Notes: generated from the sequence alone by a model not told the origin. Shown: positions 1,279-63,902, counted from the first letter of the stretch. The stretch: DNA of 64,000 nucleotides from Dudresnaya verticillata (GCA_977862235.1 OZ374557.1:3100001-3164000), one strand, 5' to 3'. Numbers and translations: made by a program.

Positions 1279-2501
1279 CTAATTGAACGCAGCGACAAGA
1301 ATGGGAAGCTGTACCCTAGTTCCAGCAACGCTAGTATCGTAGTTGTGCACCGTGAAGCTCATCGGTCGCACGCAGATAGTCCGTGCACCCGGCAGACGCG
1401 ATAGCGTCGACGTTTGCGAGGACGAGTTAGAGAGCGGCGCTAAAGTGACGGATACATGCTTCGCATCGAACTGTCTTCTACTGTCACGTCCGTATATAGG
1501 CGAGCTCGCCGCCATGGTGACGACATCCGTGACCATAAATCGAGATCCTGAGTTGAAGTCCCCATATTTTCGAGTCAGCACGACTAAACAGTTCTTCCTT
1601 ATTACCAACCTTACTGAGGCAACTTCTTCCAAACGCTTCGCCACTGAGTCTGATGGTTGCCTGCCGTATGTGTCCGCACCAATGCAAACAAAATCATGGC
1701 CTTCTAGTTTCTCCATCTCTCTTCCATTGACACCGGTAACCTCTACCTTCTTCAGGCATAGACGCGTGGAACCGTTGGGCGGAGCATTGCGTGATTGCGC
1801 GCTTGTTGTATTTAGCTCAACAATGTCAGAGTCCCGGGGCGAGCCGTACCGAAATCTCTGTAGCATAGAGTAGAATACACTGTCCTCCCTCTGACGATAG
1901 TTATGGTCTAGCAAAACAACAGCTCCATTTCCATACCCTGTGAATAGTAGAAACCAAACTCGAGATTGGAAGAAAGTTTCAAAGTAACACTTTGTGTCCT
2001 CAACACCAGAGGTTCCAGCTGAAAGGGATCACCAGCGGTTATGAGCTGTCTTCCACCCATAGGCAATGCGGCGTCCTCCTCCCGCGACGTAAGTCGACGC
2101 AGGACATAGTCGATTGCTTCAATTTCGTTCCTTTTGATGAGAGAAATCTCATCAATGATTAAGCACTTGATCGCCCTCAAAATACCGCATAGTCGTTCAT
2201 TTCCGGATACCTTCTCCCAAAGATGTCTCTTTGACCATTCCCATGAACAATGACCGGAAAACAGGGAGTGCATCGTACATCCATTGAGATTGGACGCAGC
2301 ATTATTGCTCAGTGCACAAACCGCAACTTGCTTGTGACCACTGGAACTAGACCGTGCGCGTCTCACAATTTCTTTCAAAACATGGGTCTTTCCAGACCCC
2401 ACCCCGCCTAGAATAGCCACACTCTTTCCCTTCTGAAAGGCCTTGATAGCATTGGTCTGCGAGCGATCAAGTCCTGTCGCGCTGACCGGATAAACCTCCA
2501 T
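1279..2501 (-). pseudogene. PIF1-family SF1B DNA helicase, frameshifted and C-terminally truncated
   Basis: Walker A GGVGSGKT, LIIDEIS, 'LPMGGRQLITAGDPFQL', 'NYRQ' and 'RVQLPI'. Split over ORFs 1908-2501 and 1279-1914 (frameshift near 1980). Stops before the T-x-H/N-K/R-AQG and YVALSR motifs that the element B copy retains. Confidence 0.88.
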
Positions 2502-3549
2502 GATACTGAAGTATTAGAAGAGGATTGGTCCCAGCTGCTGTTGCCACCTTTTCTAGATAGACTAGACTGGGCTCAAGCTTAAGCAGGGGTCCAAGGTACA
2601 TACAGTCCGGGAGACGGGCTCCGGGTAGTTCAGGCCGTCTCGGAGAAGCTCGTTCCCGCGGGAAGCACGGCGCAAAATGGTGCCAATTTTCAATTGAAAA
2701 TATCAGCATCTTCAGAACCGATGGGTGCCTCTAATCTGAGCTGCTCGGGGATGACATGTGACGGCACAATAGATGTGATATCAAATCTGTTGTAAGCTAG
2801 GCGGCAGCTATGTTGGAGCTGCCGCCCAGCTTGGTATCAACCAATTCTTGGTATCAACCAATTCTCCACCAATTTAGACCGCCCGGTAGACATTTGCAGC
2901 TGTGTGTGAAGCTCCAAGCTCACAAATATTTCCCGCCAGCATCGGCCGCTTCAATCGTAAGAGGCCCTTTGCTCAGGCAAGGAGCGTCTCAAATTCTGTA
3001 GTGGTACAGTAGTAGCCCACAAGAGTCCACAATTATTCAAGGAGTGTTTGCCGCCGCTGCGCGCGCAGACGCAAAAAAGCTGTTAAAGTAATGTCTCAAA
3101 TCGAGCGCTAGCGTGAAGTAGACGCATTCCTCGTACCTTACAAACTTCTTTCATCGCAAATCCCTCGCTGAATTCCGCATATCGCAAAATATCGCAAAGA
3201 GTGTGTGTCCCACAGTATGTAAGCCAAGTCATGATTTTCCCCACCCTTTACGCACACAAGAAGGTGTGGCGCACCAAACCAGATAGTGCACTGCCATGGT
3301 ATGTCTGCCGACATCATAGGATACGTACGTGTGTAAAATGCGTGTGTTTTCCAGCGTAGGGGAGAAGAGCCGACAGACTTGTTGATAGCACTATATATCC
3401 GGATACGATTACTCCTGCAGCACATCCGCGTTTTGTTGCTCACGTATCCTACCGTGACCAAGAATTGCGTGTACGAAACCTCGGCTTCGATATGGTCCGG
3501 AATAGCCCGTCATTTCTCGAGTTTACTTGCCGCCTTCCGAAATAGCCTG

Positions 3550-3720
3550 TCTCCGAAACAAATTTCCACGATCGTGACGCCTGTGAAATATGAATTCACA
3601 GGAAACAGGTCTGGGAAATACGGTTCTGGGTTACCAAGTCTATGAGTAACAGTTTCACAGTCATCGTGACTTCGAACACAATTTCACAGACACTGCAGCT
3701 GTGGAAGTAATTCCACGCGC
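3550..3720. repeat. Degenerate ~30-bp-period array of spaced palindrome CTGTGAAA-N4-TTTCACAG
   Basis: Units near 3550, 3580 (cctgtgaaatatgaattcacagg), 3610, 3640, 3670 and 3700. Confidence 0.6.
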
Positions 3721-5895
3721 ATGAATGCCTGCAGATTCGCTTTCGTGTTCGTAAACGTCTGTGCACCAAGTATTTTTCACGGCCTTGTTTCCGGAAATAG
3801 CACAGCCAGTATAGTAGTTGACCTTCCGTCACCTGTGAGCACGGGTCTTCACCGTCTGAGATCTGTCCAGCGTCCCAAAGGAACTGAACAACTGTTGGAG
3901 CTGAAAGATCCTCAAGCTTCGTAGGAACAATCTTCTGCAAAAAGTGATGGCCAAGTAAATGCTGGCAGGAAGGAAGCTCATACCAATCCGAGTACGGGTA
4001 GTGAAAAGTGGCACCTCCAGGCGTTTCTGGATTCATTCGGAAATCACACAGAGTTACTGCCCTTGCAATATTCATCTGAGATGTCCGGGCAGCGCTGGAT
4101 CTTCTTTTCTTCCTTCCGAGCGCAAAACTTTCAACATCAGGTTCCTCCCAAGGTCTATCATCCACCATAATGGCTGTGCCTACAAAACGTCCAGCCGTAC
4201 CAGATTCTTCTGTGTATGCGTATGGACCTTTAACTAAGACCCTTTTGATAGCATCTTTCTTCCATAAAACAACCTCAGATTCACAGTCGTGCAGGGAGTC
4301 AGGAGCCGCATCCGTGGCCACCTGCGATACACTTGCGAACCGAGTAGCAATTTCGCCTTCCGCGACCTTCCCTCCCTTGAAGAATCGAATTTCTGGGTGG
4401 ACCGATCCTTTACCAACCTCGATGTCCCTGCCATCCACCTTCGAAATGAATGAGCATGCCGGGCGTTGGTCGAACGCGCACCTCTCGGGACCTCCACATA
4501 CGCACTGCATGTCATTGATGCTCGTCTCCCCGCGGGTCGCCTTCTTTCTTACCCTCCGATTAGTATCATTAGTATCACTATTCCTTCTCTCTGACTCCTT
4601 CGGAGTACCCTTGTGCTTTACCCTTGCCCGCTTCGTGTAAATCCTCCAAACCCTGCACGACTTCTGGAAGACAATCCCTTGCTTTGCTATCTCAAGTAAC
4701 GCCTTGCCAGCACTTCCCTCCATTCCAGTCGTCATCAGATTCGTGCAAAGGGCAGCAAAATTCTGGGTCTTCGTATTCCTGTCCGGCTTCTTGATATCCA
4801 TCTTCACGTAGAGGGTTTCAAGTTGCTCATAGTCTTGTATCTCCCCGTCACTTCCAATCCAAGGTGCGAAAGAAACCGTTCTAACTTTAACTACTTTCCC
4901 ACGAACGTTCTCCGGGATTAGAGAGTTGTAAACAAGCTCGCCAACCGTATTGATTTGATCTGGCGCAGTAATCGTATCGCCTAAAACAGTCCCCGTAGCG
5001 TTCTGCGCTACGTGCCTCACTTCTGTGTCCCGTAACTTTTGCACAGCCCAAACCAACTCATTCACATGCAGGTCCTTGTAGCTATAGTACTTAGTCCGAA
5101 TCGGGTGTGTGATGTGACCTCCACCATCCAGTAGCAGAGACGTACACCGGGCAGAAACTTCTATCGGAACCTCCACATCAAAACCAGATTGGTGAGATGC
5201 CTCCTTTTCCGCCGGCGGATCGAAACGATCGTTTACCGACGTATTCTTCTCAAGACCGTTTCCAATCGAAGCTGAAGAAGGCAAAGGCTCTCGATGGCCT
5301 GTCGTTACACACGAGTTCGAAGTACTTCCGTCATTCACAGTCGTTCTGGACCTTTCTTTCCTTGAGCGTTTCGTGGGATGCCGAGGTGTGCTTTTCGACT
5401 TTGCATTGCCCACATCTCGTCGCTGTAGTCCTGGCGGTCCGTCTCCATGACTGTCAAGGCGGGAGTTCCCCATCGGTAGTCGCGGTCTTCCTGGTTGGCT
5501 CCGTTCACCCTCGGTGGGCCGTGTTTCGTTACGCTCTCCATGCCTAGTCGCCCCCTCCTCACGACTTGTGCCAGGCACACGTGCAGGTGCCTGCACGTAG
5601 GGAGCAGCAGTACCAGGTGCTCCCCAGATGCGAAAGACTTCCCTAATGCTGCATTCGGTCTACGTCCCGTCTCGAACTCTCCGCCATCAGTCGGACTATA
5701 TTCTTTCACGCACACGAGAACCTTCAATTTACCGATTCCTGCCTTGCTCTTACTGACATCTTCCACCCATCTTGCGCACTCAATTATAGTTGTTAATGTG
5801 GAAACAACTGGCGATAAACTAGCAGGAACACCGTCGCTGCAATCATTTCCACACATCCGCCGTAGACACGGCAATAAGATTTCCAGTACACGCAT
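3596..5895 (-). CDS. Conserved transposon-associated protein of unknown function (copy A; probable frameshift between ORFs 5335-5895 and 3596-5596)
   Basis: 666-aa ORF sharing blocks with ORF 61787-62836: W-K-x-x-[IL]-x-RV-x-VKG-x-Y, GTAI[ML]VD, AV-x-L-x-DF, YPY-x-x-WY and a Cys cluster. Confidence 0.7.
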
Positions 5896-7087
5896 ATCCG
5901 GGCGGTCTTACGTAAAGTCCTTCGTAACCGCTGCGCAGCCGAACTTCACGTGAAAGAAAGGTAATAATTTCCGGGTTGTTTGCCGCTGCAGCGCGCAAGA
6001 GACGCAGACAAAACAGGAATGTTAGCTATAGCAGCACAGCACAAAAAGCGAAATGCGGGGAGCAGGCAGTGTGGACAGCAATATCTCACGCGTGAGATAA
6101 ATAGATGCAAGAACAGTAGCGCAATCTTGTTCTGGTTGACCCAATCTGTAGCATGGAAGCCGAAATAAGTCTGCAGATACCTCTAGATTAGCAGTATCGG
6201 GACGTTGCGCATATGAAATTCCTGCGCGCAGACGTCTGGAGCATCAGTAGCCTAGGCCGTTCAACAACAAGTCTTGAAGACGGCGATCACCGTATGGCAA
6301 CAAGGCAGATGACTGCTGCGAGGGTGGGGATGAGGACTGGTTGCAACGCCGGGGGCATAGGATCATGAACCTGCACGTTTTCCAGACGTCTTCTCTGACG
6401 CCCGCAATCGAGATGTAGCAATGCAGCCCCGTGCCCCTTGATTTGCGGAACTGAACCGTGTTTAAAAGTTAGATTTTTTTGCAAAATTTTCGAAGCATGA
6501 AAATGGGCACGGCTGCATGCAGCAAGCCCAGAAAATGATTTCCTGTACCAAGTGCAAAAATGAGGAGAGTTCTCATCCAAGCAGCGCTGGCAACGTTGTT
6601 TCCCAAGCACAGCTTTACGCAATACCAAAACCATTCCTTCAGTGACGAAAAGCCCTTCGAGAGGCCCTCCGCGGGGCCCCGCTGGGCCCTGTGGAATGCC
6701 CGGGTATGCCTGCGATGGCAATTTCATTTCCGTGTGATTCGCAGTTAACTTTTTAGCTAGAAGCACAAAATGGCAGAAACGTTGCGTAGGGGAGGTGAAG
6801 AGTATACATTACAGAATACGGTACTAGTCGAAAAGCGCGCGTGTGCCGCAAGGCGCGATACATCCTCCATTAGAATTTTGGACCAGTCTTGACTGTAGTG
6901 CACTAGTGACTGCTCAATCCAGCTGGATTTGGCGTGTAGAGCTGTAGCATGCCACTATGTGCACATAGTGACTATTTACTCTTTGCCCTCAACTGACAGA
7001 GATAACTACTTATTACTGAACCATACGGTTCTGTTTCATAACATTTGTGAAGCAATAGGTCTGATACCATTCGTTTCTGGAGCAATA

Positions 7088-7260
7088 AATCTGAACATAT
7101 TGTTTTCGGAACCACGAAGTCCGAAAATACTCTTTCCTGAAGCTACTGGTCTTTGGAATAGTCTTTTGGTCACTAAGGGCTCCGAAATGAAATTCTGAGG
7201 CCCGGAGTAGCCGAAGTAGTTTTCTGATCCAAAACGCCCTGCGAACATAAGTTCACAGAC
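7088..7260. repeat. Degenerate ~30-bp-period palindromic array downstream of the transposase
   Basis: Units such as ctccgaaatgaaattctgagg and cctgcgaacataagttcacagac at ~30-bp spacing. Confidence 0.45.
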
Positions 7261-7342
7261 AATTAGTTAGGACATTCTACTATGCAATCATGAAGCTTAC
7301 AAAACGGGTTTAGTGGTCCTGCACGCACGCTCCTACAGAAAA

Positions 7343-10300
7343 CTACTCTGAACAACACGGACATGTCAGTTCGAGGCAACTGAAGTACGTCCAGTGAAGA
7401 TCTGCTTCAGAAACATCCATTGGGCTGCTGTTGTACATTGGCGATGATTTCGCTTTGGCCTTCAAGTTTAGAATACAGACTTAATATGCCAGTAGAGCTA
7501 TGTAGAACTCCTGGTAACAGTAGCGGAGACTCTTCTCGATTTCCGAAACTGCGCGATTCCTCTGTTCATGGGCGACCGTGTTGGACATGTTGAGGTTATC
7601 GTGCGAGGTAGGGACGTAACTCGGCGAGCAATTGTGATTTAGAGCATGAAGGGAATCAGAAGTTATCGTTGTGTCCTCAATGGCCCACCAAAGAGTATGC
7701 GCTGCGCTGTTGTACAGTCCGCAGGCAAAGTCGTAGATAATATGCCGAGGTAGACGGGGAAACCGCGACACGATGGCATCCAGTACAGACCTCGGCCCTT
7801 CATTCTTCTCCAGCACCTTGAACCCCATGATAATAGGAGATGAACAAGAGCAGCAGAATGTCAACGCGCCTGGAGTGTAACTCTTATTCTTCTGCAAGTA
7901 ACGCTTGGAGCAGACACCGAAGAAATCGTCCTGAGATATACCCTTTAACTCGTCATTAAACGGCATCGGACGCACTTGTGGGTGGGCGGGGAAGAAAACT
8001 CCGGTTCTACAAGCAGATGCGTACTGATTGTCAATATTCGCTTCAAGCCTATTGGCAAGGTTAATTCCCAAGTACTTGGCTCGCAGTGATTCAAATTCAG
8101 CACTTCTCCAGTCTTTTGCGAAACTGGAAGCTTTGCAGACTCCCGGTGGCAATGTAACATAGAATTCATAAAAGTCCCTCACCCGTCTCACCACATCATG
8201 AAGCGATTTCCCTATATGTTGCAGCAGAACTTCGCACACGTTTTCGAGGTACAACGTCGCGGAGAGTCCTCCGCGCAGTATCCGTAGAAACCTTAGCACA
8301 TTATAGTTTTCGGTCTGACTCCTCTGTGCAATCGGAACAGTTGTCTCCTTCAGTTGTTCTTTAACTCCTTCAATTCCTGCCATGCAAGCGTTAGCTACAG
8401 TAGATAGACTTTGCAGCTGCTTCTTTGTCACAAGCTGAGTACATGGGGCCTGCACTAATGCCTTAAAAAGTATGAACAAGTCATGTCGGCAGTCCCTTAG
8501 GACTTCTTCTTCCTCGTCTCGATCTGATGTGAAGCTACTGTTCCACGGCAAACCTTGAGTATCAGCTATACTAGCAACGCTATCCCTTGAAATATATGCC
8601 GTGACAGTTTCCTTAACTCCTTCATGCGCAGCTGTCAGCGCATTCCTGTTGTTGCGCTGACATACCTTCACAAGGTACTTCAGAAGCGCCCTACACAGAC
8701 GTAGAAGCAACACCTCCTCAGTAAAAATGAGAGTTTTGAGCTCCCGAATCCTCTTCAGTACGCATTCGCCTATGTCATCGCTACAGTCACCACCGTTTCT
8801 ACCACATATGGACTCCTGGAAGTAGCTGGTTGGAAGAACAGAGGGGTTGATGAGACAAACTACTGAAGCACATGCCGAAACCGTTTGGCCAGTAATGGTA
8901 ATTGAGGAGCCCTCTATAGCAGAGATCAGTAGGAGCGCGGTCTGTTCCCGGCGAAGCAGTCCGGGAAGCGGACGCTTTCTCGTAGCATTCTGGGAGACTG
9001 CCCTAGACACGTGTAGCGCCTCGCAAGGTTGGGACGCGTTTGTAAACTTCCTTCGCAACCTTTTCTGATACCCACTCCATATGCCATCCGCGCAAATTGC
9101 ATGCATCCGTCCAGTCGCCTCGCATGTGTTGCACTGAAATAAACTTCGCGGTGGCGCAACAACGATTAACTTGCACATAACCACACACAGTTTCTGAATC
9201 AACCTTGCAGAACGCCACCCATGCTGGCTTCCAACAATCCCGCGTCATCAGACGTCGTTCTCGGACTCCTTTCGGACCAGACATTTCTAACAGGAGGTGG
9301 TGCATGCTGCGCTCCTGCCCCGGGGGGATGCGATGAATCATCATGTGTATCCTGAATCGATTGGGATGCGGGGGCATCATATCCTTCTAAATCGAAAAGT
9401 CCGTCTCGGACATTCCTGTCAACTTGTTTCTGGAACTGCTGCTCTGGTGTCAACGTAGAGTCGCGCTGCAACCAAATCCCTGGGATTAAATCTGCACTTA
9501 TGTTAGAGAGCATTGTGGAGTGGAACTGCTGTATGCGCCCGCTAACAGTTCCATTCGTCAAAGACACACCTGTCAATATGTCTCGGAGTACCACATGTGT
9601 AGCTGCAGAAGATAGCATCAGGAGTAATATACCATGGTCCCGCCCTTCAGAATGAATCTTCGCATTGCAAGACAGGCTGCTGCACTGGAATATCTCTATA
9701 TGCATTCGGCAAGATCCAGCCGAGAATAAGAGAATGCCCTCCTGAAGTTTCCTACTGCTTTCGGAACGTAGACTGTGGCATACCATACATATCTTTGGAG
9801 CCTTGACGAGAAATGCGGCACACTTCTGCGATAGCTGCAATACTTCCCGGTCAACTCGAATGCTCCGTGTGCAGTTGACAATTGGAAGTGGGAAATAGGA
9901 TACTGATTGTAGGTCGAGCATGGGATTCCAGTCCGGGCCGTGTTGCATAGTTCTGGGACGCTGCTGCGGTCCAGACCCTTCAGTACCGTTCACCGGCCCT
10001 CCATGAGTATCTAGTGAATGGAATAAAGTGACGTGCTTACAACTAGTCGTCTTTGACAAATCGCAGAAGGCGCATATCCTGTGCTCCCCATTCCGCATCG
10101 TACGCCTTATCGGAATGTATAGAAGCTCATCTGTAGAGAGTGGATCCGCCCTAGCAATTACAGATATCGCTGTTCCATGGTGGTTTCACAGATGAGGAAG
10201 GTCGAACATGAATACAGCACATTCCACATCGCCAAACTTACTTTGCACATTTCAATTAACGCCAGTGCGCATTCCGTTCGTGTGGTAGGTAGATAGCCTG

Positions 10301-11317
10301 ACAGACAGGTTGATATCTCGTCCAGTAGAGATGTAAATGCTCCAGCATGATGACAGCACGGATCTTTGAAGGCATCCAGACTCGTTCTAACACGATAATC
10401 GGTATACCCAATGCAAGTACAGCGAATTGAACCCGCCTTGTCTATCCATGTACAACACGTGTGGCGTTCTCTAGACTTGGATGCAACTCCCTGACCGCCT
10501 GAGGGAATAGTTTTTGTTGATGTAGAGAACCGTGCGCGTATACCAATAACTGAACCGAAAAGTAGCTCCAAACCATTGTTTCTCTCTTTTCGTCTAGAAT
10601 GGCTTCCGAGGAGAGCGGCAAGTCGACCCCCCAACTCTGCAGAGCTAATTATCCTCGAATTGGAACTTTGTCCAGTTGAGCCAGTCCTTGCAGAAACTTC
10701 AAGGTACTGCAGCAATTGATTTGCAACACCTTCCTGTCCATTGCTAGGAATTGTTGCAATGAAGCGGCAAAGCAAGGCTTTGCTTTGCAAGGCGTACGCC
10801 ATTCTAATGAAACCAACCTGTCTCCTAGCACGTCTTCCTAGCGATGACCACTCCCTGCCCGATTTTGATACCGCGGCCTAACAAGACCCAGGTCAGGCCG
10901 TAGAGGCAAGTCGTGGTACGACATGCTTCCCCTCGGGTCTGAAATATACCTCTCATACATATCCGTCGTCGTACCGATAGGGTCAGGTAACGCCGTACCC
11001 CCATGTGCTTCTTCTGCAAAATCCTTCAATACCTCCCTCACCTCCTCCTCACTAAATCCACAATTTGAGACAACGCCCAGACATTCAGACCTGTCTCTCC
11101 CAGGGGCTTCTGTTAGGGTGCTCGCATCCACAGGGCCTCGAAGTAATGATCTACTAGTAGAAGCCCCCCTAGACCACTTCACACTGCTGTATGGAAGGGT
11201 AGAGGCGCCGCGGTCACTACTGAGAACGTGAGATCCACTATCTTCATCGGAATCATACTCTGCACCAAACGAGCGCACATAGTCACGATACGGACTAGAC
11301 GAATCGGTACAGGACAT
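7343..11317 (-). pseudogene. SWIM-like + CxC cluster + KDZ (Kyakuja/HMGXB3-like) DDE transposase, disrupted
   Basis: Catalytic-type motifs CADG, 'TPGALTFCCSC', 'IIYDFACGL', 'SDSLHALNH-C' and 'NTVAHEQRN'. Upstream CTC..CCHH and CxxC..CKH Zn motifs plus a CxxC..CxxxxC cluster. Fragmented into ORFs 10838-11317, 10158-10802, 9199-10098 and 7481-9202. Homology to copy B continues past the TAA at 7481-7483 to a TAG at 7343 (LTCPCC). Confidence 0.85.
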
Positions 11318-11322
11318 CGGAA

Positions 11323-11340
11323 TCCGGGGGTGTTTGCCGC
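11323..11340 (-). promoter_or_regulatory. Shared upstream motif GCGGCAAACACYCCCGGA (transposase copy)
   Basis: Near-identical motif at 13516, 18555 and 21472 (+) and at 5970 and 3041 (-), always co-oriented with the next gene. Confidence 0.6.
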
Positions 11341-36293: not shown

Positions 36294-36342
36294 AGTCGTC
36301 GAGACCCAAGTACTTCTCGCATCGACGCAATCGAAGTAAAGG

Positions 36343-51898: not shown

Positions 51899-54036
51899 AT
51901 GGACCCACGCCGCTACCGAAGATGGGCTTGGGCTGCGGCTTACACTCGTCATATTAGGAATCAGGTGCTAGGAAATAACAAGTTCAGCAGTGACGAAGAA
52001 GAGACGCAAGCGGATCTACAAGAGGAAGACCAACGCGGCCAAGTCCGCCAATCGGGAAGGCGTGTTCCGCTCGCGGGAGCGCGAGCGTCGAGGGATACGA
52101 CGCTCAACGACGGTGAAGAAGACAGGACTGTGATCCGCAGCCACGATTTGCAGGGCACCCAAGTTCGCACGCGTACACCCGCGGATCTGACCATTTCGCG
52201 TGAAACCCGGCAGGAGAACACCCACCTGAACGGCAACCATCAGCATGCGGTGGTGCGCGACGCAAGGGATAGACATCACGAGACGGAGACTGCGGCGGCA
52301 ACTGCAGCTGCGACGCATGCGTCTCAAGCCAACGGCGCGCCCGTCGTGGGGCGCCGTCAATCGCGACAGGTGGCGGAGACAGTGGCGGCAACTGCAGTTG
52401 GGACGCGTGCGGCCCAAGCCAACGGCGCGCCCGTCGTGGGGCGCCCCCAGTCTCGACGAGTGGCGGAGACAGCGGCGGCAACTGCAGCTGCGACGCATGC
52501 GTCCCAAGCCAACGGCACGCCCGTCGTGGGACACCCCCAGTCTCGACAGGTGAGGGAGACAGCGGCGGCAACTTCAGCTGCGACGCATGCGTCTCAATCC
52601 AACGGCGCGCCCGTCGTGGGGTGCCGTCAGTCGCGACAGGTGACGGAGACAGCGGCGGCAACTTCATCTGCGACGCATGCGTCTCAATCCAACGGCGCGC
52701 CCGTCGTGGGGCGCCGTCAGTCGCGACAGGTGACGGAGACAGCGGCGGCAACTTCAGCTGCGACGCATGCGTCTCAATCCAACGGCGCGCCCGTCATGGG
52801 GCGCCGTCAGTCGCGACAGGTGGCGGAGACAGTGGCAGCAACTGCAGCTGGGACGCATGCGTCTCAAGCCCGCGGCGCGCTTGTCGTGGGGCGGCGCCAG
52901 TCGCGAGAGGTGGGGGAAGCAGCGGCGGCAGCTGCAGCTGCGACGTATGCGTCCCAAGCCCTTGCGGTGGCCCTGTATGGGAATTTCCATGAGAACTGTT
53001 CTAATACTATTGTCGCAGATATTATCGACAGCATGTTGACGACGATAGTTATGAAGGCCGCGGGAGGTTTGGTGCAGGGCACTGGAGATATTGGGAAGCC
53101 TACAGGTGTGGGAGAGGAAACGCCTGCATCCCTGGGACTGTTCCAAAGAAGCCATGTTCCTCAAGGGGTAAAGCGAAGTGGGAACCCGGATGGCCTGGAA
53201 CCACCGACCAAGAAGCCCAGATCGGACGTAATCGTAGCGGGACAGAGCAGCGTGAAACGGTTGTGCGAAGTTCTTCCCATACAGGATGCAGTTCCGGGCC
53301 TAACCACCTCGGAACGTAAATTCGCGGCCATGAGGAGGAACATACGAGACGGGGGATTCATTGTGAGCTATAGTGAATTGCAGGTGTTTCGAAGGAGGAC
53401 TACTATGGTCAACGACGAGTTCCTGAACTTATTCGTTCGAGCCATCAATCGCCGCAATTTTGAGAGTTGTAAGCGTCCAGACGGTCCCAAAAGGTCTTTC
53501 ATTTTCACATCTTTCCTACTACCCGCACTGGTGACGTCTTCGAGGAAGTGCAATGGCATCGCGTATACACTTTCGAGTAAGTGGTTTGGAAATCAAGTAT
53601 CGGAAAGCTATGGAAGGGAGTTTGTTATGGCTGACTTCGAGATTCTGATGATGCCCTTACACCTGGGTGGCGATCATTAGGCCCTCCTCATCGCTGATTC
53701 TTCTCGTCGCTGTGTTCAAGTGTACGACTCACTGCAAACCACAATGAACAACCAAACCAGGGATGCAGTGCAACGTTTTAAGAGCTACATATCAGGGGAG
53801 GACTCTAATACAAGGCACAGGAGGCGACTTACCCCTTGGACAGGGATCATGGAGTGGCCGACGCATCAGGATCGGTCCCTTCCAAGACAGGACGACGCCT
53901 ACTCCTGTGGGATTTTCGTCATGTTTGTAGCCATTACATTGCGAGGGGTTGCTGCCCTATGTTTGGGATGGAAAACATTACTGTTCTGCGAAGTAGAGCG
54001 GTAGCTATAGTGCAAGGTGTCGACATTTCGAAATAA
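51899..54036 (+). pseudogene. Repeat-containing protein with C-terminal Ulp1/C48 SUMO-type peptidase, disrupted
   Basis: 'MVNDEFLN', 'IFTSF', 'PLHLGGDH*ALL' (TAG at 53678 at the conserved Trp of HW), 'VYDSL' and 'PRQDDAYSCGIFV'. Frameshift near 53935. Confidence 0.9.
52285..52960 (+). repeat. 90-bp coding tandem repeat, ~7.5 copies (ETAAATAAATHASQANGAPVVGRRQSRQVA)
   Basis: GACGCATGCGTC or a variant at 52312, 52402, 52492, 52582, 52672, 52762, 52852 and 52942. Confidence 0.95.
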
Positions 54037-54507: not shown

Positions 54508-57500
54508 TTATTGCTCAGCCGTAGCATTGAAATTGGGACAACAAGTACAAGTAAGACGAAGGCATCCGAAGTAGCACCATTCCACATCACAGTCAGACAA
54601 AAGCCGGGCTCGGTTTTCGAATACAGATGTTTGCTTTGCCCGTCCACGAATGTTCCCTATGATGAAATAGAAAGAGAGTAGTGCAACGTAAAAGTGACAT
54701 CCTGAGTTTCTAAGAGATCTGCAAAGAAGCTTGATCCGTCTGTTTCTCTGCTCATGAGAAACTGTATTTGCCAGATCCAACTCCTTATGCGAAGAAGGTA
54801 TAAAGGATGGGGAGCAACCCGTATGGTTTGAGGCATGGAACTTATCTCACACAATAACTGTGTTCTGAATTCCCCACCATAATGTGTGAACAGCACTTGC
54901 ATAAAGACCAGAAGCAAAGTCATAGATGATGTATCGCGGGAATCTGGCAAACTTGGAAGCAATCATGTTCAAAACAACTTTTGGCCCTTCGTCACGGAAG
55001 AGAACCTTGAACCCGAGAACGACTGGATTGGAGCACGAACAAGACATCGTCATGGCTCCTGGCGTGTATTCTTTCTGTTTCTGATAAAATGTCTTCGACC
55101 ACGGACTTATCTTCTCTCTGTTGCTGTAACTCCAATCCTCAGTGACAAACGGAAATGGTCTGACTTGGGGTCGCCCTGGAAAATAGTTGCCAGTTTCAAC
55201 TGCGCAGCGAACAGAGTCTGATTCGTTCATCTTGTGTTCGATTGCCAAGTTCGCGCCATACTTCTCATTCATCTTGGACAGAAGAGCCCCCTTGTCTGCA
55301 ATACTCCATTCCTGGCAGAACTTCAGTGCCGTGAACGTCCTTGTTTCTGACGATATGCCCGCTGCGACCCTCGAGGATGCATTTTCATACGATTTGTAGA
55401 ACGTATCGATGCATTCTGCAGATGATACGTAAAACTTCCCAAGTGCTTCACGTGCTGCAAAACTTTCCTTCTTCAGGTTTCCCTCTGCGTCGCGTTCCAT
55501 CACAGTCACTGTAAAAGTAGCTGCTCGAATAAATCTATTCGTCCTCACCACTTTTCTTTCATTTATTCTTGGACCTATCCCGTGCAAAAATTGCACCAAG
55601 GGGCTAATGTCTTGGTTCAGACACATGCGTCCCATTCCAGAAAGTGACAGTAATTGTTCTCTTCTGATACACTGTGTCAGCGGTCCTTGAAGATCAATTT
55701 GGAACAACCGGAAGATCTCATTGCTTCTGTCTCTATGGTACGCGGTGGTACCTTGCCGAAAGGTTTCTGTCCAGCATGTTCCTGAACGAACAATTGTACT
55801 CAAGAGCGGGCCTTCTAGATGGTCCAAAGTTTCTGAAACAGCCACCAGAACGTTTTCTGTCCTGGACGTCTTTGGATTTGGCTCATCCGGGAAAAAGGAC
55901 GATGTCTCGCTCGAGATCTCGCTTCCAGACACATAGACACCGGCCCTTACTAGGAAGTCCTTGTCCCTATTCCTCAGGAATTGCATCAATGAGCGCAACG
56001 GTTGTAGTAGTCGATAAATCATACTGTCTGTATGGAACAAGGCATTGGAAAGCTCCCCTATAGATTGCAGCCATGTGTTTGATCCTATGTCATTGAAGTA
56101 GTCGTTGGGTGCATTTCCGCATATAGAAGCCGGGTAGAAATGTGTAGGCAGCAAATCGGGCGAGAGTATACGAATAGTTTGAACGAAATCCTCTATGTTT
56201 TGCTTTGTGCAAATGATGTCTTCTCCTTTTGCCGCTCCCAAAAGGATTTTGGGGACTCCAGTCCTTCTGATTAAAGAAGTCATCGGCCTTCGATGCAATT
56301 TTCCACGACCTACTTGAGACGCACGCGTCCCAGACCGATTTGGGAGAGGCTCGCAAGACTCAGAAATGTTCCGTATCGGGAGCTGCAGTCTGCGTTTGTA
56401 TCCTTGCTGAATCCCATCCACGCAAATTATTCGAAGTTCACGACTGGGACCCTCGCATCGCGAGCAAGTGAAAAGGGATTCAACAGGGTTCATAGTCATT
56501 AGTCGTAGCATTAATCCACATAGATTGCGAAGGGTTCGCACAGAACGGCACTGCGGAATGACTGGTAGTAACCCAAACTGCTGGAGCTATATTACTTGTG
56601 AATGAAAGTGTGAGAGCCGTCCACTTAAAGTCCCATTAGACAGTGCCACACAAGTTAGCTCCCGTCTCAGAAAGGCGTGCGTTGTTGCAGACGTCCCAGT
56701 GTCCAGAAGAATGCAGTTTTCTCTGCCTTCTGGTTGGATTTTCGCGTCACACTCTTCAGAACTGCATTTGAATACCTCCATTCTCATTTCACACGGGCCA
56801 ATACTGTACATTACTATGCCTTCCTCGCTCAGTTCCCTCGTCTTGGGGTCTCGGGGAGATCTGCACTTCTGACATATGTTGGGCGCTTGTACAATATACT
56901 TCTCTCGTCGCTGCGCTGTAAGGGCGACTGCATTGTCGACATGCAGTGATCTAGAGCAATTGACAGGGGCCAAGGGAAGGTGTGAAATGTCTTGTGCCGA
57001 TTCTGATTCCTCCTTCTCCATATCATCTTGATCCTCTTCTCGGTTTTCATCAGTATCTAATAGGTTACTGTGGTCCACGGCGATGCTAGTATGTTCACAA
57101 CCCCCTCTATGCAAAGTGTCACAAAACACGCCAGCAAAAAACTTTCCCTTGTTAATAACCCTAACGGGCACAAAGTATAACCATCCTTTCTCTCCCAGAA
57201 GAGAGAAGGTTAAAAGTACCCTTCCATTGTGCATTGATACGGCCTTCGGACATGACATTTTGTATGCAGAAAAGCTCATTTCACTTCTATTCTCATACAA
57301 TTCGGCAACTGCTCGAGCTGTCGTCTTCGTAGAAACACTGTATAGAGAAGAGACCTTCTCAATGAATGAAATAATTCCTTTCAAATGAATGCATTGTACC
57401 TTGTCAAAATTTCCATGCGGTACAGTTTGGGATCCATGCGTCTCTCCTCGTTCTTGTTCGGATTGTGTATGGGCCGATTAAGACTCATGCGTCCCAGTCC

Positions 57501-58435
57501 CAGACGTACCATCCAGATCCCTCTGCGATGAATTCGGCAAGGCTTGGTGTGCCCCGCCCATCCCGTCCCCATGCTCAGATGGACTTGCTTCTTTGTCGAC
57601 GATGTCGATTTCGTCTATTAGAATTCTGAACGAAGTTATTCCAATGCAGGTGCAGAACAGTTTCCCATGCCGTGATATCCATGTCACAACTGCGTGCTTG
57701 TCCATGCCCTTTCCGCCCTCTGCAGCAACTTCTGAATGTGCCAATTTCGTACTAATAACAGGATGTGGGCAGTTCGGAAGGATCTCATGTGGCCCATATG
57801 CCTTCGTACTGTTTTTTTAAGGACATCACGAATAATATTCGAGAACTTCTTTAAACGTTCCCGTCGCTCATCTGGATCAATATTATCTACACTACTCAAC
57901 GGGACTAAATGTGAATCGAGCTCCTTGCAGAGATCTAAGTCACTGCCTCCGCATGCTACGCAAAGTGTCCTAACCAGTACTTCTGGAATTTTTCGTTCCA
58001 TTGCCCTCCGCCTCTGCGCTGGTCTCCGATCATACCGACGCCCGCCACGGTCGTGCAAAGTTCCAGGCCGGGCTTGGCGTTCAAAACACGGAAGTTATTT
58101 GCGTTGCAAGCAGTTCCGTGATCAGATTCCTCCGTACTAGGAATCACTTCGCCGTTATTTTCTTGGACCCGAGAAGTATTTCCCTCACTCAGCCGACAAA
58201 ACGCAGGATCTTGACCTTCATACATTCTCATTACTGGCCATATATCTCGCAGCCCGAACTGAACTTCTTCTGGGACATTTGATATTCCTGCTTCCGTATC
58301 AATTTCATTCCATACCGTATTGCTTCCCACTTCTCCTTCTTGTAGCAACGAATGCACTTGGTGCAATTCTTGCTCAGACCACTCAGACATTCCCCCGCCT
58401 CCCAATGTCATGGAGTGTATCTCGCTAAGAACCAC
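54508..58435 (-). pseudogene. SWIM-like + CxC + KDZ DDE transposase, copy B, disrupted
   Basis: CVDG, 'YTPGAMTMSCSC', 'IIYDFA', 'DKFHASNH-C', 'NTVSHEQRN' and C-terminal LTCTCC; upstream FCTCIG. Colinear with copy A. Stops at 56587 and 54847, with frameshifts upstream. Confidence 0.85.
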
Positions 58436-59094: not shown

Positions 59095-60570
59095 ATGGGC
59101 ACTCAACTCGATAACGTGCAGAGAAGAGCATTGCAGTCCTTCCGCACTGGGCGATCGCTGGCCATCCTCGGCGGTGCCGGTAGCGGCAAGTCCTTTCTAC
59201 TGCACGAAATTATTGATCACGCAACGAAAGCGGTTGGGGACTACCGGAACATTGCCGTATGCGCTTTCACGAACAGGGCAGCCAAAAGTTTGAACGGGAG
59301 AAACATTCACTCCCTCTTTGCTGCCCCATTGAGTTGGCCTTTTCAAGTGGATAAGCTCCTCGAAGAAACTGCGAAGACTGCGGGCGCTGTTACTACACTT
59401 CGACAAATTCAAGTCCTCATCATCGATGAAATAACACACTTGACCGCAGGAATGCTTGACAGCATAGATGGGGTTCTGAGGGAGCTTTCATCTCCCAGAA
59501 ATTCTTCCCTCCCTTTTGGGGGACGTCAAGTAATTATAGCAGGGGACCCGTTTCAACTCGAGGCGATCCCACAAAGGCATGGAACATCAGAAGAGAATTT
59601 GCAGGTGTTTCATGCTCGCTCCTGGTTCCTTAGCTTCGGGGGATTTGGAACGGGTGCTGTGGCGATTCTTTCGGGTAACCACAGGCAGGCTGAGTCAGGA
59701 GTACTTCGATCTTCTTGAGAGAGTGCGCTGCGGAACATTCAGCGATGAGGACGTCAACAAAATCAACAGAACAAGTGTTGCGATTTCTTCGCCTCCGTCA
59801 CACTACACAAGACTTTTCTTGGAGAATAATGAGGCGGACTCGATAAACGAAACATATCTGGCTAAGATTCGCAATCCTTCCTTCTATCATAGAGCTGAGG
59901 ACAAATTTCACACTGCCCAGCATGGTGGCGTTCACTCCAACTGCATAAGGGTTCTGGATTCAATGGCCCGAAGGGTCATCCACGTAAAAGTCGGGCGATT
60001 GTTCTCACTACTATGAAAACGGGTGCGTTGCTTCCCGGCTCTCGGGGTACAATATGCGGAATTGTAACAAATGCTCATGACACGAGTGCTATTTCGGCAT
60101 TGAAGTTGAGAACTGATGACGACACTATTCACACAATGTCTCCTCGTCTGTTTTCAAGTCGAAACAGAAAAGCAGAAGTAATCGCTACCCGGAGGCAGTT
60201 CGCTATCGTCCCAGCTTATGCCACAACGATTAACAGAGCTCAAGGACTCACCCTCTCGAGAGTGGCTGTTTCATTCAAGGATATTAACAGATGGAAACCG
60301 TTTGGGATGGTATACGTGGCATTGTCAAGATGCACGTCCCTTCAAGGTGTGTGCGCATCAGGGTTAACTAGAGCAAACATTATTGTAAGCCCGTAAGCAA
60401 GGTACTGCTTCACAAGAATTTCGAAGCTGCGAAAATATTATCCTTCTCGAGTAATAGAGGACATGAGTACGTCTAACACTGAATCCTACATTGCTGAAAA
60501 GAAGAGGGTCCGTGGAAGCGCTCACGCCGACTTTCCGGAAGCTTCTGTGCCAAGGCGACGTACGGTATAA
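59095..60570 (+). pseudogene. PIF1-family helicase, copy B, two frameshifts
   Basis: GGAGSGKS, LIIDEI, 'LPFGGRQVIIAGDPFQL', NHRQ, 'RRQFAIVPAYATTINRAQGLTL' and 'YVALSR'. ORFs 59083-59718, 59579-60016 and 60013-60396. Confidence 0.92.
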
Positions 60571-60720: not shown

Positions 60721-61113
60721 ATGAGGAACCAGGATCTCCGTGATTCGTGGGAGGGCCTGTGTCGCCAACGTCGGCGGCGCATTCCAGTTCCCGACTCTGG
60801 ATTCGTTCCGATTCTACATATTAGGGATCGTAAGCTGCGAGATGCCGGGATTCGATGGTATTGTGGGTCATTTCCCGGAAAACCGGATGTCCTCAAGACT
60901 CGACTTGGTCCCGAGGTCTACAGGTTGCACAAAGCCCGAATTGAGTCTGGATTGAGTGTGAAGCGTTGGAATGCGGGCGTGCAAGCCCGACTCCTAGATA
61001 GTCTGAAGGCATTTCTGGATGTCTTAGATGACCAAAACTGTGTTGGTCAGAAGCGCAAACGCGAGGATTTGAGTCCCGTGCGCAGAACGACCAAGAAGCG
61101 CAAACCAAGTTAG
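60721..61113 (+). CDS. Small basic hypothetical protein
   Basis: 130-aa ATG ORF with an NLS-like C-terminus; no family recognised. Confidence 0.35.
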   Translation: MRNQDLRDSWEGLCRQRRRRIPVPDSGFVPILHIRDRKLRDAGIRWYCGSFPGKPDVLKTRLGPEVYRLHKARIESGLSVKRWNAGVQARLLDSLKAFLDVLDDQNCVGQKRKREDLSPVRRTTKKRKPS

Positions 61114-61786
61114 CAAATCATCGCATTGGAAGCATGTAGTACCGAATATGTTTTAGAGTTTGCATGAAGGTTGAAGACGTACTCCCTTGCCACATAGTGT
61201 AGCGTAGCTACAACTTAGGACACTGAGGCGTCTCTAAATAAATCACACATTTCGATTCCTTACTCATGAAGCACAGGATGGCACTCATGCAAAGCAATGG
61301 TATTTCTTTAAGATGCATGCGGCGAATGCGTCCTACGGAACAAAAATGGGATTGAATTTTAGGTAGACAGGAAAGGGGAGCATGCGTCCCACAGAAGTAT
61401 ATAAGAAATATAATTCCGCAAATATGCAGCAATTTAAGTCATTAAGTCAGAGACGCACGCGTCTCTGACTGATAATATTTTAATTTTCTTACTAAGACTC
61501 ACGCGTCTCAGAGCACAAAAATAAAAAGTAATTTTTCTCAGACGCACGCGTCTCTGACTGACGCCGCGACGCGGCGTGTATATGGTGCTATGTCCAGAAG
61601 GTCATAATTGTATCCCATTGTGAAAGAGTGGGGCGCATGAGGTTTAAAGAGACGTGTGCGTCGCACTGTTTCCATCTTAATGACAAATCAACCTTTATAC
61701 TCATTGTATCGACTTCCCTTTCAAACCTACAGTTCATTACGAACGAGTGAGATGCATGCGTCCCAGGTACTCGCAACTATTGAAAA

Positions 61787-63361
61787 TCAACCTGCTGACT
61801 GAATGCATTCAATCCGACTTTTGTGCCAGAGAAAAGCCTGGAAAGGAGGAAGACCCGTAACTTGTTTCGGCACTCTTTGATCAGAAACGTGCAGAGCTCT
61901 CATATCCTTCAATTCTCTCGACTTATACCATTCAAAGTAGGGGTACTTAATGTCTTCAGCGTAACCGTCGTCGTCAACCTCGCCAAGATCACAGTGGAAA
62001 TCAGCCAGGAGAACTGCTCCAGTAACATGAAGGGAACCGGGTTCAAAACGCGTTTTCATATTCACTTTCACACCTTTCCAGTCAACAAGAATCGCGGTCC
62101 CGATATCCAAATATTCTCCCTTCACCCTAACCCTTCCAAGACTGTTCTTCGGCCATGACACAGGACGGCAAAGGAGGCTGTCCTTGCTTGGATTTTCGTC
62201 GTCTGCACTCCACGTCCCAGAAAAATAGGTGAGATCGTGTCCCTCCATTATGGAGCAGAACTGAAGTGATGTATTTCCGGAAGGAACAGGTCGGCCCAGG
62301 ACGTGTGTTTCGAACAGGTCAACTTTTCCAGTCCCAAGCTTCCTTACTCGCAAATTGTCTTGGAAAATATCGCAAGTTGCAGTTGGCTTCTCAGGGCAGT
62401 TCCGAGGACAAACTGAGCAGCCTTCTCTATCGTATCCAGAGAGCGCAATGTCCCTTAAAATCTTACCCACTGCGATATGTCTTGGATTCTTCTGCAGAAG
62501 AATTGAGAGGAGAGCGTAGTGAACATCTCGTCCATTTCTGCTCACCTTGCTGATCTGTAACGTCACAGAGTGAGAACCGTTAACTTGAAATGGGCGACCA
62601 TTCAAGCCCTCCCTCAGCGTGGACCGTGCGAAGGACACTTTTCCCCCACGAACACCGTTCGGGACAATGCTGTTATACTTAATTCCAGAAGTCCTTTGTC
62701 CGTCATCTTTCATTTTCTTCTTTGCCGCTTCAAACACGGCAGATACAGCCTGGTTGAGGATTGTTTTCGGTATGAGATCGAAACTGTCGACGTCAGTACT
62801 CCGCTGCCGAGAACGACAACCAGCTGCGCTAAGCATCAGAGAAAGGCATCTTGCTGCGTCCTCATCCCGAATGTGGAACGTTGAAGAATTTAGACTGGAC
62901 AGCTTTTCGATCGGGTTGCACTCGGCCTATTTCGTTTCCCATGGTTGCGTCACCGACCCGGATTATACCCGGTTGATCGGTACTAGTTCCATCACGAATG
63001 GATGGAATAGCCCGATCTGCGATATTGCCTTGAACAGCGCTTCTTCTCACGCCAGGAAGAATATTTCGGGTCTCGGTAAGAGACGCACGCGTCCGAAGTT
63101 GGTTTTCGACCACGTTCGGGCCCCAAAGTACGACGATGTTTTGGCTGTCCCGGCTTTGGTTGTTTTCCTTACCGTATGACTTTGCACTGAGGAGCAGTGA
63201 TATTTTCCAGCTCGCGGATCAGTGTTAATGACGTCTTGAACGAACTGTGCGTTGTGGCGCATATTTTCCAAAGCAGACTTCACCAAACTGCGTTCTCTGC
63301 ATTGTACGGACCCGTATATCGTGTCCAGACAGCGCTCAAGACTGTTGTTAGTGCGAAGCAT
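61787..63361 (-). pseudogene. Conserved transposon-associated protein of unknown function (copy B), fragmented
   Basis: ORFs 63047-63361, 62862-63113 and 61787-62836. Shares motif blocks with 3596-5895. Confidence 0.7.
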
Positions 63362-63481
63362 AGTGAGGATGACAGTTATTCGTAGTTGCCGTCGGTAGGA
63401 GAAGGATGGACATGAAAGGGACAGAGATATTTGAGATCGGGTACTAATTGTTTCAAGTAGGAGAGGGGTGCATCCAATGAC

Positions 63482-63599
63482 CAGAGGTACACTTTGACAT
63501 GTAAAAGTGTACCTCTCTACCCGGTGTACCCCGTCTCTGCCAATGAAAATCGTGAACGGGGTAGAGAGGTACGTTTTTCATGCTCAAAATGCACCTCTG
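63482..63599. repeat. Nested imperfect inverted repeat (~44-bp arms, each itself palindromic)
   Basis: cagaggtacactttgacatgtaaaagtgtacctctctacccggt pairs with acggggtagagaggtacgtttttcatgctcaaaatgcacctctg. Confidence 0.75.
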
Positions 63600-63902
63600 C
63601 TGTTATTATAAATGTGCATTGCCGATGAGTAGTTTGGCTGTCCTGATTAACGAAGTACTCGTCCCCGTAACAGCTGTTTGTACTGAGACCGGCTTGTAGC
63701 TTGCATCTCCGTTCGAGTCGGAACGATAGAATGCACCACGGGACTCTTCAATACTACCGAAGGATGGTCCCTTTTAGTTGTAGGACGCACGCGTCGTACT
63801 AAGCTAGTTTCGAATATGAATAAGTGCTTGGTACAGTAACAAAGGTTGTGTTTACTTGTTCGATACTCTTTGCCGTTCATGAATGCCTTTAAGTACAAGG
63901 CA

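Follow-up and report, generated by a model that had tools for sequence, protein, structure and literature searches.

The 64,000-nt stretch of Dudresnaya verticillata OZ374557.1 analyzed here (the window, taken at its full length) contains two decayed KDZ-type DNA transposons, A and B, from a lineage whose transposase and stand-alone PIF1 helicase gene are inherited in step, PIF1 being under purifying selection. The features of the window are as follows.

327-25807, no strand: element A, a decayed KDZ transposon of 25.5 kb
319-326, + strand: left target-site duplication (TSD) of A, GCGGTGGA, unique in 1-1280 at one mismatch or fewer to the right copy
25808-25815, + strand: right TSD of A, GCGGTGCA, pairing with the left TSD at 7/8
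1279-2501, - strand: A PIF1 helicase gene (Pfam PIF1, E = 5.7e–20), one frameshift near 2007
3596-5895, - strand: A gene X, in two frames, homologous to the X genes of B and L072
7346-11317, - strand: A KDZ-type transposase, in four frames, one stop at 7481-7483
13462-17309, + strand: A SF1 (AAA_11/AAA_12) helicase cargo gene, broken (Pfam E = 5e–39 and 2e–34)
18656-20419, + strand: A orphan cargo ORF of 588 aa, no Pfam match
about 21537-24173, + strand: A Ulp1-like ORF, named from residue order only
3037-21489: six copies of an 18-nt motif, at 3037 (-), 5969 (-), 11323 (-), 13516 (+), 18555 (+) and 21472 (+)
32578-32703, + strand: 126-bp repeat, an undisrupted paralogue of the A target, with one TSD copy
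32711-32718, + strand: predicted left TSD of B, CATCGTCT, its partner copy outside the window
32719-64000, no strand: element B, its right end outside the window
33406-48963, + strand (33406-35502 and 48571-48963): B ParB-like gene, split by a Gypsy element
35503-48570, + strand: Gypsy chromovirus-type LTR retrotransposon of 13.1 kb, nested in B
49848-51340, - strand: B ORF Z, in two frames, no Pfam match
51659-54001, + strand: B Ulp1 (Peptidase_C48) gene, stop at 53678-53680
54520-58411, - strand: B KDZ-type transposase, two in-frame stops and frameshifts
59095-60396, + strand: B PIF1 helicase gene (Pfam PIF1, E = 2.1e–19), two frameshifts
61787-63577, - strand: B gene X, in two frames, 32% to L072 X (E = 2e–40)

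The 8-mers flanking A agree at 7/8 positions, that is, an 8-bp TSD with one mismatch, and an inverted subterminal motif is present at its left and right ends. Its right end is the rank 2 window match of a terminus matrix built from related loci only, and its left TIR is short, with a 13-nt core. The 15-nt terminus pattern by itself was not above chance (reached in 23/100 shuffles), the + strand of the window holds 35 8-mers within one mismatch of the right TSD, and a blind search for TSD and TIR pairs found nothing for A because an exact TSD was demanded. The 126-bp repeat at 32578-32703 acts as an in-window empty site, since A interrupts its paralogue, likewise of 126 bp (215-326 and 25816-25829); in the empty-site alignment the left part scored 48, the highest of 500 shuffles being 34, and the right part is weak, its score being equalled in 28/500 shuffles. 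Rfam and ARAGORN detected no RNA genes in the window, so a tRNA or snRNA target is unsupported. In A and B alike, KDZ, PIF1 and X have been disrupted by frameshifts, stops or insertion, and so have the SF1 gene of A and the Ulp1 and ParB-like genes of B; both elements are dead, and mobilization would have to come in trans. None of 19 candidate viral contigs was confirmed.

The left end of B shares 16/18 nt with the terminus of two complete relatives (L007 and L011) and is the best matrix match of the window. Without its Gypsy insertion B exceeds 18.2 kb, and all 27 copies of the palindrome GACGCATGCGTC lie in B, none of them in the insertion. The Gypsy element has 773-nt LTRs with 15 differences and a 5-bp TSD, and encodes gag, RT, RNase H, integrase and chromo. 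The ParB-like gene that it splits has C-terminal 48-nt repeats containing the B palindrome; a Pfam search of this gene gave no match, and its ESM Atlas features (0.92-0.95) lead to ParB_N clusters. B Ulp1 is real, matching Peptidase_C48 at E = 5.7e–13 once its internal stop is read as X; it has 90-nt repeats in its N-terminal part and is similar to the Ulp1 of L052, at a level reached in 0/300 shuffles. B PIF1 aligns in three HSPs, in three frames, that together cover residues 3-452; A PIF1 aligns with residues 3-331 of an intact relative of 502 aa and lacks the C-terminal motifs V-VI.

An earlier note on this DNA had claimed four genes shared by A and B with clear protein similarity, no DNA identity and different order, forming a fixed core (transposase, PIF1, Ulp1 and X) of ~18-25 kb elements. 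The gene orders and orientations are as it gave them: A reads PIF1, X and KDZ on the - strand followed by SF1, the orphan and the Ulp1-like ORF on the + strand, and B reads ParB-like (+), Z (-), Ulp1 (+), KDZ (-), PIF1 (+) and X (-). It was also right on DNA identity, blastn finding no match between A and B genes, and on protein similarity for three of the four, which tblastn pairs at 32-37% identity for KDZ (E = 2e–95), 44% for PIF1 (E = 3e–35) and 23-25% for X (E = 1e–11). Ulp1 did not hold up: we rejected clear homology between the A and B versions because the A ORF has no tblastn match to B and its local alignment score was equalled in 55/300 shuffles. The A ORF has no Pfam C48 match either, its H..D..Q..C order being visible by eye only.

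The window transposases have no direct match to Pfam KDZ (PF18758), and the family was reached transitively, through 10/57 further homologues at E ≤ 1e–3, two of them above the curated cut-off; one homologue, P0093, scores 49.8 bits to KDZ across the part that aligns with the window (E = 2e–14). A smaller homologue set gave 2/25 KDZ matches, both under the cut-off, and CxC4 was matched by 5/25 of that set and 3/57 of the further one (two above cut-off). The A transposase is 35% identical to a 1190-aa relative, and that of B 34% to P0004 over 998 aa (E = 6e–175). D587, D1058, D1083 and E1114 (P0004 numbering) are invariant in 18/18 long homologues and kept in A and B, and we infer that D587, D1058 and E1114 would be the three that perform DDE catalysis. 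Both window transposases have conserved N-terminal Cys/His clusters of CxC/SWIM type; Pfam SWIM gave no match, and the SWIM-like spacing was seen by eye only. The profile searches proposed by the earlier note returned PIF1 in both elements, C48 in B and KDZ/CxC4 through homologues, but no SWIM, and no C48 in A. Zisupton and Dileera have an 8-bp TSD, and Kyakuja a 7-bp TSD with CA..TG termini and no TIR (PMC12730594). The three complete relatives (L007, L011 and L012) show 7 bp and A 8 bp with one mismatch. Of the features looked at for Zisupton, TIRs are present but short and imperfect, and TSDs read as 7 or 8 bp; the Kyakuja description does not fit, the termini being CAA..TTC with imperfect TIRs.

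The related-locus set comprises 81 loci in 36 families, 79 of the loci GC-rich and most at 59–68% GC. L007 and L011 are copies that are 99.65% alike and occupy different sites, and L012 makes a third complete element. Each of the three is 11-12 kb long with imperfect TIRs, encloses KDZ, PIF1 and a third gene, and is flanked by host genes; TSDs are of 7 bp in 3/3, or of 8 bp in 2/3 counting the terminal C. Remnants of neighbouring elements were observed at L012 and L061. L072 and L052, which overlap by 277 nt (99.6%), together supply a third gene order for X, KDZ, PIF1 and Ulp1, L052 PIF1 being a stand-alone 502-aa ORF and its Ulp1 having Peptidase_C48. PIF1 adjoins the KDZ transposase in 46/81 loci and 24/36 families, the two genes being arranged in tandem, convergently or divergently. 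In one family (L048/49/53/74) the 9.4 kb upstream and the 10 kb downstream contain no PIF1, and the gene is absent from L041 but present in its nearest relatives; thus PIF1 is not needed in cis.

These loci bear out KDZ DNA transposons of several genes, with accessory genes encoded separately and in variable order, given their TIR/TSD ends and tree congruence, but break up the fixed core. Linkage in relatives was found for transposase and PIF1, whereas Ulp1 and X occur in 0/79 GC-rich loci, the three complete elements included: the core is the transposase plus stand-alone PIF1, usually with one more fast-evolving gene, and Ulp1 and X are sublineage extras. Sizes start at 11 kb rather than 18 kb, and the figure for B is a lower bound. 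The search for TIRs and TSDs succeeded for A, L007, L011 and L012, and the search for empty sites yielded a stand-in, the paralogue at 32578-32703.

For 24 elements, the tree of PIF1 and that of the transposase have 16/21 splits in common, against four or fewer after label shuffles; 12/12 well-supported KDZ splits are recovered in the PIF1 tree, with no supported conflicts, and distances correlate (Mantel rho 0.83; 0.76 for the GC-rich set alone). PIF1 dN/dS was 0.10-0.23 in 11/11 pairs, which are not independent and have dS of 0.6-1.8, near saturation. Walker A and Walker B are retained in 24/24 element PIF1s, which group together in one clade (support 1.0) to the exclusion of 26 outgroup PIF1s. 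Element PIF1 scores 115-122 bits against solved genomic-type PIF1 chains and 55 bits against Helraiser. We rejected a Helitron origin of the locus on the absence of Rep, the stand-alone PIF1 and this poorer Helraiser score; as the earlier note had it, there is no HUH Rep, no Helitron family being found in 35 window ORFs and two Rep motif patterns being absent from six frames.

Gene X had no homologues among 2057 candidates, no usable Atlas match, and a predicted structure of pLDDT 32. The third gene of the GC-rich elements had no Pfam match, no clear PDB sequence match and no Foldseek match at E ≤ 0.001; a wide structural search gave weak matches of its low-confidence N-terminal part, several of them MADS-type chains (one, an SRF complex, at Z 4.7, rmsd 5.0 over 76 aligned residues); a MADS-type likeness may be taken as a lead only. 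Whole-profile comparison of X with the third gene gave P = 0.044, and the top domain pair P = 0.0026 (probability 11%, nine pairs tried), which is suggestive of homology between the two.

Short motifs private to each element were also found. All 20 copies of CTGTGAAA lie within A. A fixed 18-mer search in A gave five matches, and a pattern widened to fit these sites gave six, against 0.02 expected and 0/100 shuffles; one copy lies upstream of each A gene, in the sense of that gene. The motif is likely a promoter or TSS element, and with all six A genes behind it they would likely be co-expressed.

For the role of PIF1, we give about an even chance to a red-algal KDZ lineage in which the transposase works by cut-and-paste and the co-inherited PIF1 re-copies the element at the donor site. 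The transposase would excise the element at its imperfect inverted ends, recognized through the private subterminal motif of each family; insertion would produce the 7-8 bp duplication, and PIF1 would drive long repair synthesis, restoring the 11-25 kb element in the emptied donor site. Other genes (X or its counterpart, Ulp1, ParB-like, SF1) are gained, lost and shuffled. The job suggested for the helicase rests on what is known of eukaryotic PIF1, which in the long-tract repair of breaks promotes migration of the D-loop and synthesis by strand displacement. A need for PIF1 driven by size is weakened, because complete PIF1-bearing elements measure only 11-12 kb, and accounts of other KDZ elements, 11-30 kb long, leave helicases unmentioned in the sections consulted (PMC11343200; PMC12477816). 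Replicative transposition, with ends nicked and joined without excision and PIF1 unwinding for a host polymerase in a Mu/Tn3-like manner, would be in keeping with purifying selection on PIF1 across deep divergence and with two asymmetric, imperfect ends, and the TSDs fit either route. It nonetheless seems unlikely, as no resolvase or polymerase gene occurs among the scanned ORFs, a KDZ family without PIF1 exists, and other KDZ elements with TIRs and an 8-bp TSD move, again with no helicase mentioned in the sections consulted (PMC11343200). We are similarly doubtful of a helicase-driven replicative DDE lineage of old red-algal descent, in which a captured genomic-type PIF1 copies the element, X or the MADS-like protein reads the private motif arrays and a private promoter motif, and up to six genes make up a small virus-like programme; were the replicative reading true, transposons would have recruited PIF1 a second, independent time besides Helitrons, with different chemistry.

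The host very likely has a PIF1 of its own, which counts against a supporting role for the element's copy, either clearing the ends of the transpososome or of other proteins after strand transfer, or helping host forks to pass GC-rich repeats and protein-bound motif arrays. The listed functions of PIF1 include displacing proteins and unwinding secondary structure (PMC8788227), private motif arrays are dense and most related loci GC-rich, but PIF1 is kept equally in hosts of 43–50% GC (the window and L052), and we regard this role as rather improbable. A reading of each gene as an independent nested element, or as a host gene lying by chance near KDZ copies (both kinds had been allowed for by the earlier note), or else as Helitron debris, is highly improbable and already largely refuted. 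Nesting is indeed common (Gypsy in B; the remnants at L012 and L061), and the A Ulp1-like ORF has no detectable homology to B Ulp1. Yet copies at different sites enclose PIF1 within their TIR/TSD ends, the trees are congruent, there is no Rep, and PIF1 scores far better to genomic PIF1 than to Helraiser; one motif also precedes all six A genes, and a third element with four genes exists.

With a DDE lineage in which selection has kept PIF1 in very distant hosts, it becomes testable how 10-30 kb cut-and-paste elements multiply and why some DDE elements have helicases, and L007/L011, near-intact, recently duplicated and of three genes, offer a minimal assay system with and without helicase. The termini and motifs found here enable annotation of such elements. 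PIF1 is treated as the Helitron mark among transposons, so annotation may wrongly assign red-algal PIF1 matches to Helitrons or to the host. Helitrons are not known to make TSDs. They too encode a PIF1-family helicase (PMC8788227), but fused to HUH Rep, whereas here a stand-alone PIF1 of ~500 aa lies beside a DDE-type transposase within TIR/TSD ends.

Red-algal Plavaka elements of 17-19 kb carry a ParB-domain accessory gene, PAG3, beside tandem inverted repeats, and PAG2/PAG3 are reported with Zisupton elements in Bangiophyceae (bioRxiv 10.1101/2025.02.11.637652). B likewise has a ParB-like gene and palindromic repeats, PAG3 being compared by description only; PAG3 joins an N-terminal ParB to a 2OG oxygenase, and Pfam detected no 2OG oxygenase, methylase or SET domain in B. 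The Plavaka transposase is EnSpm-type, unlike the KDZ-type of A and B, and the main text of that preprint does not contain the word 'helicase'. Family-private short motifs throughout the element, coding sequence included, recall VANDAL Mutator elements (VANC anti-silencing), as a lead only; the same Bostrychia preprint cites VANDAL as self-binding (bioRxiv 10.1101/2025.02.11.637652).

With giant KDZ elements (those of Ectocarpus, and Cryptococcus KDZ1) ours share a large Cys/His-rich transposase with a KDZ-type C-terminal domain. The AcademH and KolobokH helicases are RecQ-like, of SF2. AcademH and KolobokH are, like ours, DDE transposon lineages with a helicase gene, but of other transposase superfamilies and with a DEAD/Helicase_C helicase rather than SF1B PIF1 (PMC10799480); ours do not fit their description, the helicase being PIF1 and the transposase homologues matching KDZ. 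Lengths of 9-30 kb, asymmetric or low-identity termini, subterminal repeats, 7-8 bp TSDs, extra genes and nested TEs are further likenesses to KDZ elements (PMC12477816; PMC11343200). Differences from those described are the short imperfect TIRs together with a 7-bp TSD reading in the complete GC-rich elements, and the separate PIF1 gene co-inherited with the transposase: the passages and supplements on KDZ elements that were searched name neither PIF1 nor a KDZ-linked helicase, and the literature searched (Repbase and one key supplement lying outside it) describes no PIF1-bearing KDZ lineage. Accessory genes in giant KDZ elements, and helicases of other kinds in DDE transposons, are already known, so the earlier note's view of the combination as undescribed narrows to the partnership of a KDZ transposase with PIF1.

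The window DNA is eukaryotic and intron-poor, with a GC content of about 49% once one insertion is set aside. Gene calls and a domain scan returned the gene orders of its two decayed KDZ transposons, A (327-25807) and B (32719 to past the window end), as an earlier note had stated them. That note also held that four genes are similar between A and B as proteins but not as DNA. No identity was found at the nucleotide level, and the protein similarity stands for the KDZ transposase (32-37% identity), the stand-alone helicase PIF1 (44%) and gene X (23-25%), but not for Ulp1: the Ulp1 gene of B is a true Peptidase_C48 (E 5.7e-13, internal stop read as X), while the Ulp1-like ORF of A had no match in the domain profile search, and their alignment score was equalled by 55 of 300 shuffles, so the two do not match. 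Both elements are dead, their transposase, PIF1 and X genes being broken by frameshifts and stops; the PIF1 of A ends ahead of motifs V-VI. About 240 nt in the transposase of A (9241-9484), lying between two aligned blocks and absent from homologues, are either an insertion or an unusual intron. The ParB-like gene of B is split by a 13.1-kb Gypsy element (35503-48570; LTRs 98% identical, 5-bp TSD), which has 61-69% GC across most of its length vs. 49% in the host and carries an antisense ORF (44869-47913, 1015 aa) with no Pfam match; it possibly came by transfer from a GC-rich alga.

No window protein matched the Pfam KDZ domain directly, but the assignment is borne out through relatives. A search of 1.84 billion representatives yielded 775 transposase relatives; KDZ was detected in 10 of the 57 scanned (two above cut-off) and CxC4 in 3 (two above cut-off), and a separate scan of 25 proteins found KDZ in 2 and CxC4 in 5, every one below cut-off. 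Across 18 long homologues, four acidic residues and many Cys/His positions vary little or not at all, and A and B keep them apart from a few decay substitutions. Given these matches and retained residues, the window transposases belong to KDZ transitively.

Linkage was assessed on 81 loci, 80 of them the top-ranked among 182 confirmed metagenome matches and one taken from a genome collection, grouped at 90% DNA identity into 36 families. Two have 43% GC; the other 79 (0.59-0.68) likely come from GC-rich red algae. PIF1 adjoins the transposase in 46 of the 81 loci and 24 of the 36 families, placed downstream in tandem, convergent, or upstream and divergent. Among the 12 PIF1-negative families, nine have too little flank to judge, and that of L072 overlaps a contig carrying PIF1 (L052; 277 nt, 99.6% identity; combined order X<, KDZ>, PIF1<, Ulp1>). 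Since L072 diverges past the overlap, the two may represent separate copies from the same family and not a single locus. One family has no PIF1 across 9.4 and 10 kb of flank, and L041 lacks it at the position where its nearest relatives carry one; the existence of PIF1-less families shows that PIF1 is not required in cis. L041 also has a RecQ-type helicase (DEAD, Helicase_C, RecQ_Zn_bind; 767-2603), 8-10 kb upstream of its KDZ gene; this helicase may be a host gene, part of another element or a helicase replacement. The L081 contig, filed under a Gracilibacteria MAG, bears a KDZ-PIF1 element nested among GC-rich algal-type elements and is likely eukaryotic contamination. Small orphan ORFs lie close to PIF1 in B (60721-61113, +) and L052 (1759-2268), with no mutual similarity detected.

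The 79 GC-rich loci yielded neither X nor Ulp1; another conserved gene occurs instead in 17 of the 36 families and a third one in 8. The fixed core of transposase, PIF1, Ulp1 and X proposed earlier thus falls, and only the transposase-PIF1 linkage survives. The lineage is defined by these two genes, with X, Ulp1, ParB-like and SF1 as sublineage extras: the multi-gene KDZ transposon is real, on firmer support than before, but narrower in scope.

Comparison of copies located bounded ends. L007 and L011 share 99.65% identity along 11.2 kb with both flanks different, and L012 is a third complete element (12.2 kb). All three start with CAA and end with TTC; each has imperfect TIRs of short length and a subterminal motif particular to its family, with the transposase, PIF1 and third gene between its ends; outside lie host genes (ABC transporter, multicopper oxidase). 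A 7-bp TSD fits all three and an 8-bp TSD two. Ends or remains of a second related element beside complete or near-complete ones (L012:669-3719, L061:5363) suggest clustering or insertion near kin. A terminus matrix trained on five locus termini, with the window left out, gave its highest window score, 18.1, to 32720 (+) and the second, 13.1, to 25806 (-), ahead of 11.9 for the third, and the left end of B agrees with that of L007 at 16 of 18 nt. The window features bearing on these ends and on the intervening DNA are as follows.

215-326 and 25816-25829: 126-bp repeat, one copy, with A inserted in it
941-963: 23-bp derivative of the 126-bp repeat, within A
26714-27469 (-): C2H2 zinc-finger gene, likely host, divergent from the next
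about 28900-29400: long (GAGT)n/(GT)n microsatellite between the zinc-finger genes
30033-30587 (+): C2H2 zinc-finger gene, likely host
32578-32703: 126-bp repeat, uninterrupted; B starts 15 bp after

The left end of A is well supported by converging signs, each modest alone; the terminus-pattern test for it was not significant. The 8-mer outside 25807 reappears with one mismatch at 319-326 (candidate TSD), immediately before GAAC and the sole inverted copy of A's subterminal motif. The DNA flanking A on both sides resembles the unbroken repeat, which has a single 8-mer copy, and excising A plus one TSD copy in silico restores the same 126 bp. This repeat, starting (C/T)AGTA and ending GGTCTC, may reflect target preference or extra termini; a CAGTA start is also given for Ectocarpus KDZ-1 and a 156-bp relative in PMC12477816, as a lead only. 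B contains near-perfect long hairpins (49571-49626, 63482-63599, 63903-63961); because those at 63482-63599 reuse the left-subterminal GAGGTAC, its right end may sit just beyond 64000.

Each element also carries private motifs. All 20 window copies of CTGTGAAA lie within A, and all 27 of the palindrome GACGCATGCGTC (one mismatch allowed) within B, whose Gypsy insertion is free of it. Every one of the six genes of A is preceded by an 18-nt motif in the gene's own sense, and this motif occurs at no other place, under a pattern widened after the fact (five hits under the fixed pattern); it lies 6-90 nt from the first Met for five genes and about 540 nt for PIF1. From this arrangement, SF1 and the orphan gene are true parts of A rather than chance-nested passengers. 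The arrays suggest an element-encoded DNA-binding protein, for which X, the ParB-like protein and the third gene, whose weak structural matches are MADS-like, are candidates. B's palindrome is embedded in coding sequence of ParB-like (33406-35502, 48571-48660), Ulp1 (51659-53000) and Z (49978), within tandem repeats of 48 nt in ParB-like and 90 nt in Ulp1, and is dense downstream of X (61452-61751); similar palindromes, GACGC-n-GCGTC, follow X at L072:110-215.

PIF1 and transposase trees of 24 elements (22 locus families, A and B; two PIF1-positive families were left out for short coverage) have 16 of 21 splits in common, vs. at most 4 in label shuffles, with no supported conflict at split support of at least 0.9. 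Their distances correlate at 0.83 overall and 0.76 in the GC-rich set alone. In overlapping pairs with dS near saturation, dN/dS is 0.10-0.23 for PIF1 (11 of 11 pairs) and 0.03-0.07 for the transposase; PIF1 Walker A and B are present in 24 of 24 elements. Element PIF1s and six close database matches group into a single clade, set against 26 outgroup PIF1s chosen from 72 lower matches (Helitron helicases and red-algal host PIF1s not knowingly included). The sister of B's PIF1 is a protein attributed to Gracilaria domingensis, which makes a florideophyte red alga the likely host. Against solved structures, an intact PIF1 scored 115-122 bits with genomic-type PIF1 chains and 55 with Helraiser. 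The simplest reading of these sequences is a single old capture of a genomic-type PIF1, retained despite repeated gene-order changes.

The elements are bounded, insert by staggered cuts (TSD) and carry a KDZ-type transposase and a selected helicase. Independent nesting of the genes, set beside the shared splits and the enclosing ends, is highly improbable. For the role of PIF1 we see an even chance that the transposase would excise and integrate the element, after which PIF1 would power extended repair synthesis templated by the sister copy, with net copy gain. That PIF1 instead plays an ancillary part, in removing proteins or easing fork passage, is rather doubtful, and replicative transposition, compatible with the same TSDs, is unlikely.

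In the literature searched, which left most subscription journals and Repbase outside its coverage, no description of a PIF1-bearing KDZ lineage was found, and the link is probably new; Supplemental Table 6 of bioRxiv 10.1101/2025.02.11.637652, on curated red-algal elements, may include it. Already on record are KDZ elements of giant size that carry accessory genes (PMC12477816, PMC11343200), their 7-8 bp TSDs (PMC12730594), red-algal Zisupton elements with ParB-type accessory genes (the same preprint), helicases carried by AcademH and KolobokH (PMC10799480) and the PIF1-family helicase of Helitrons (PMC8788227), with PMC5751038 as further background.
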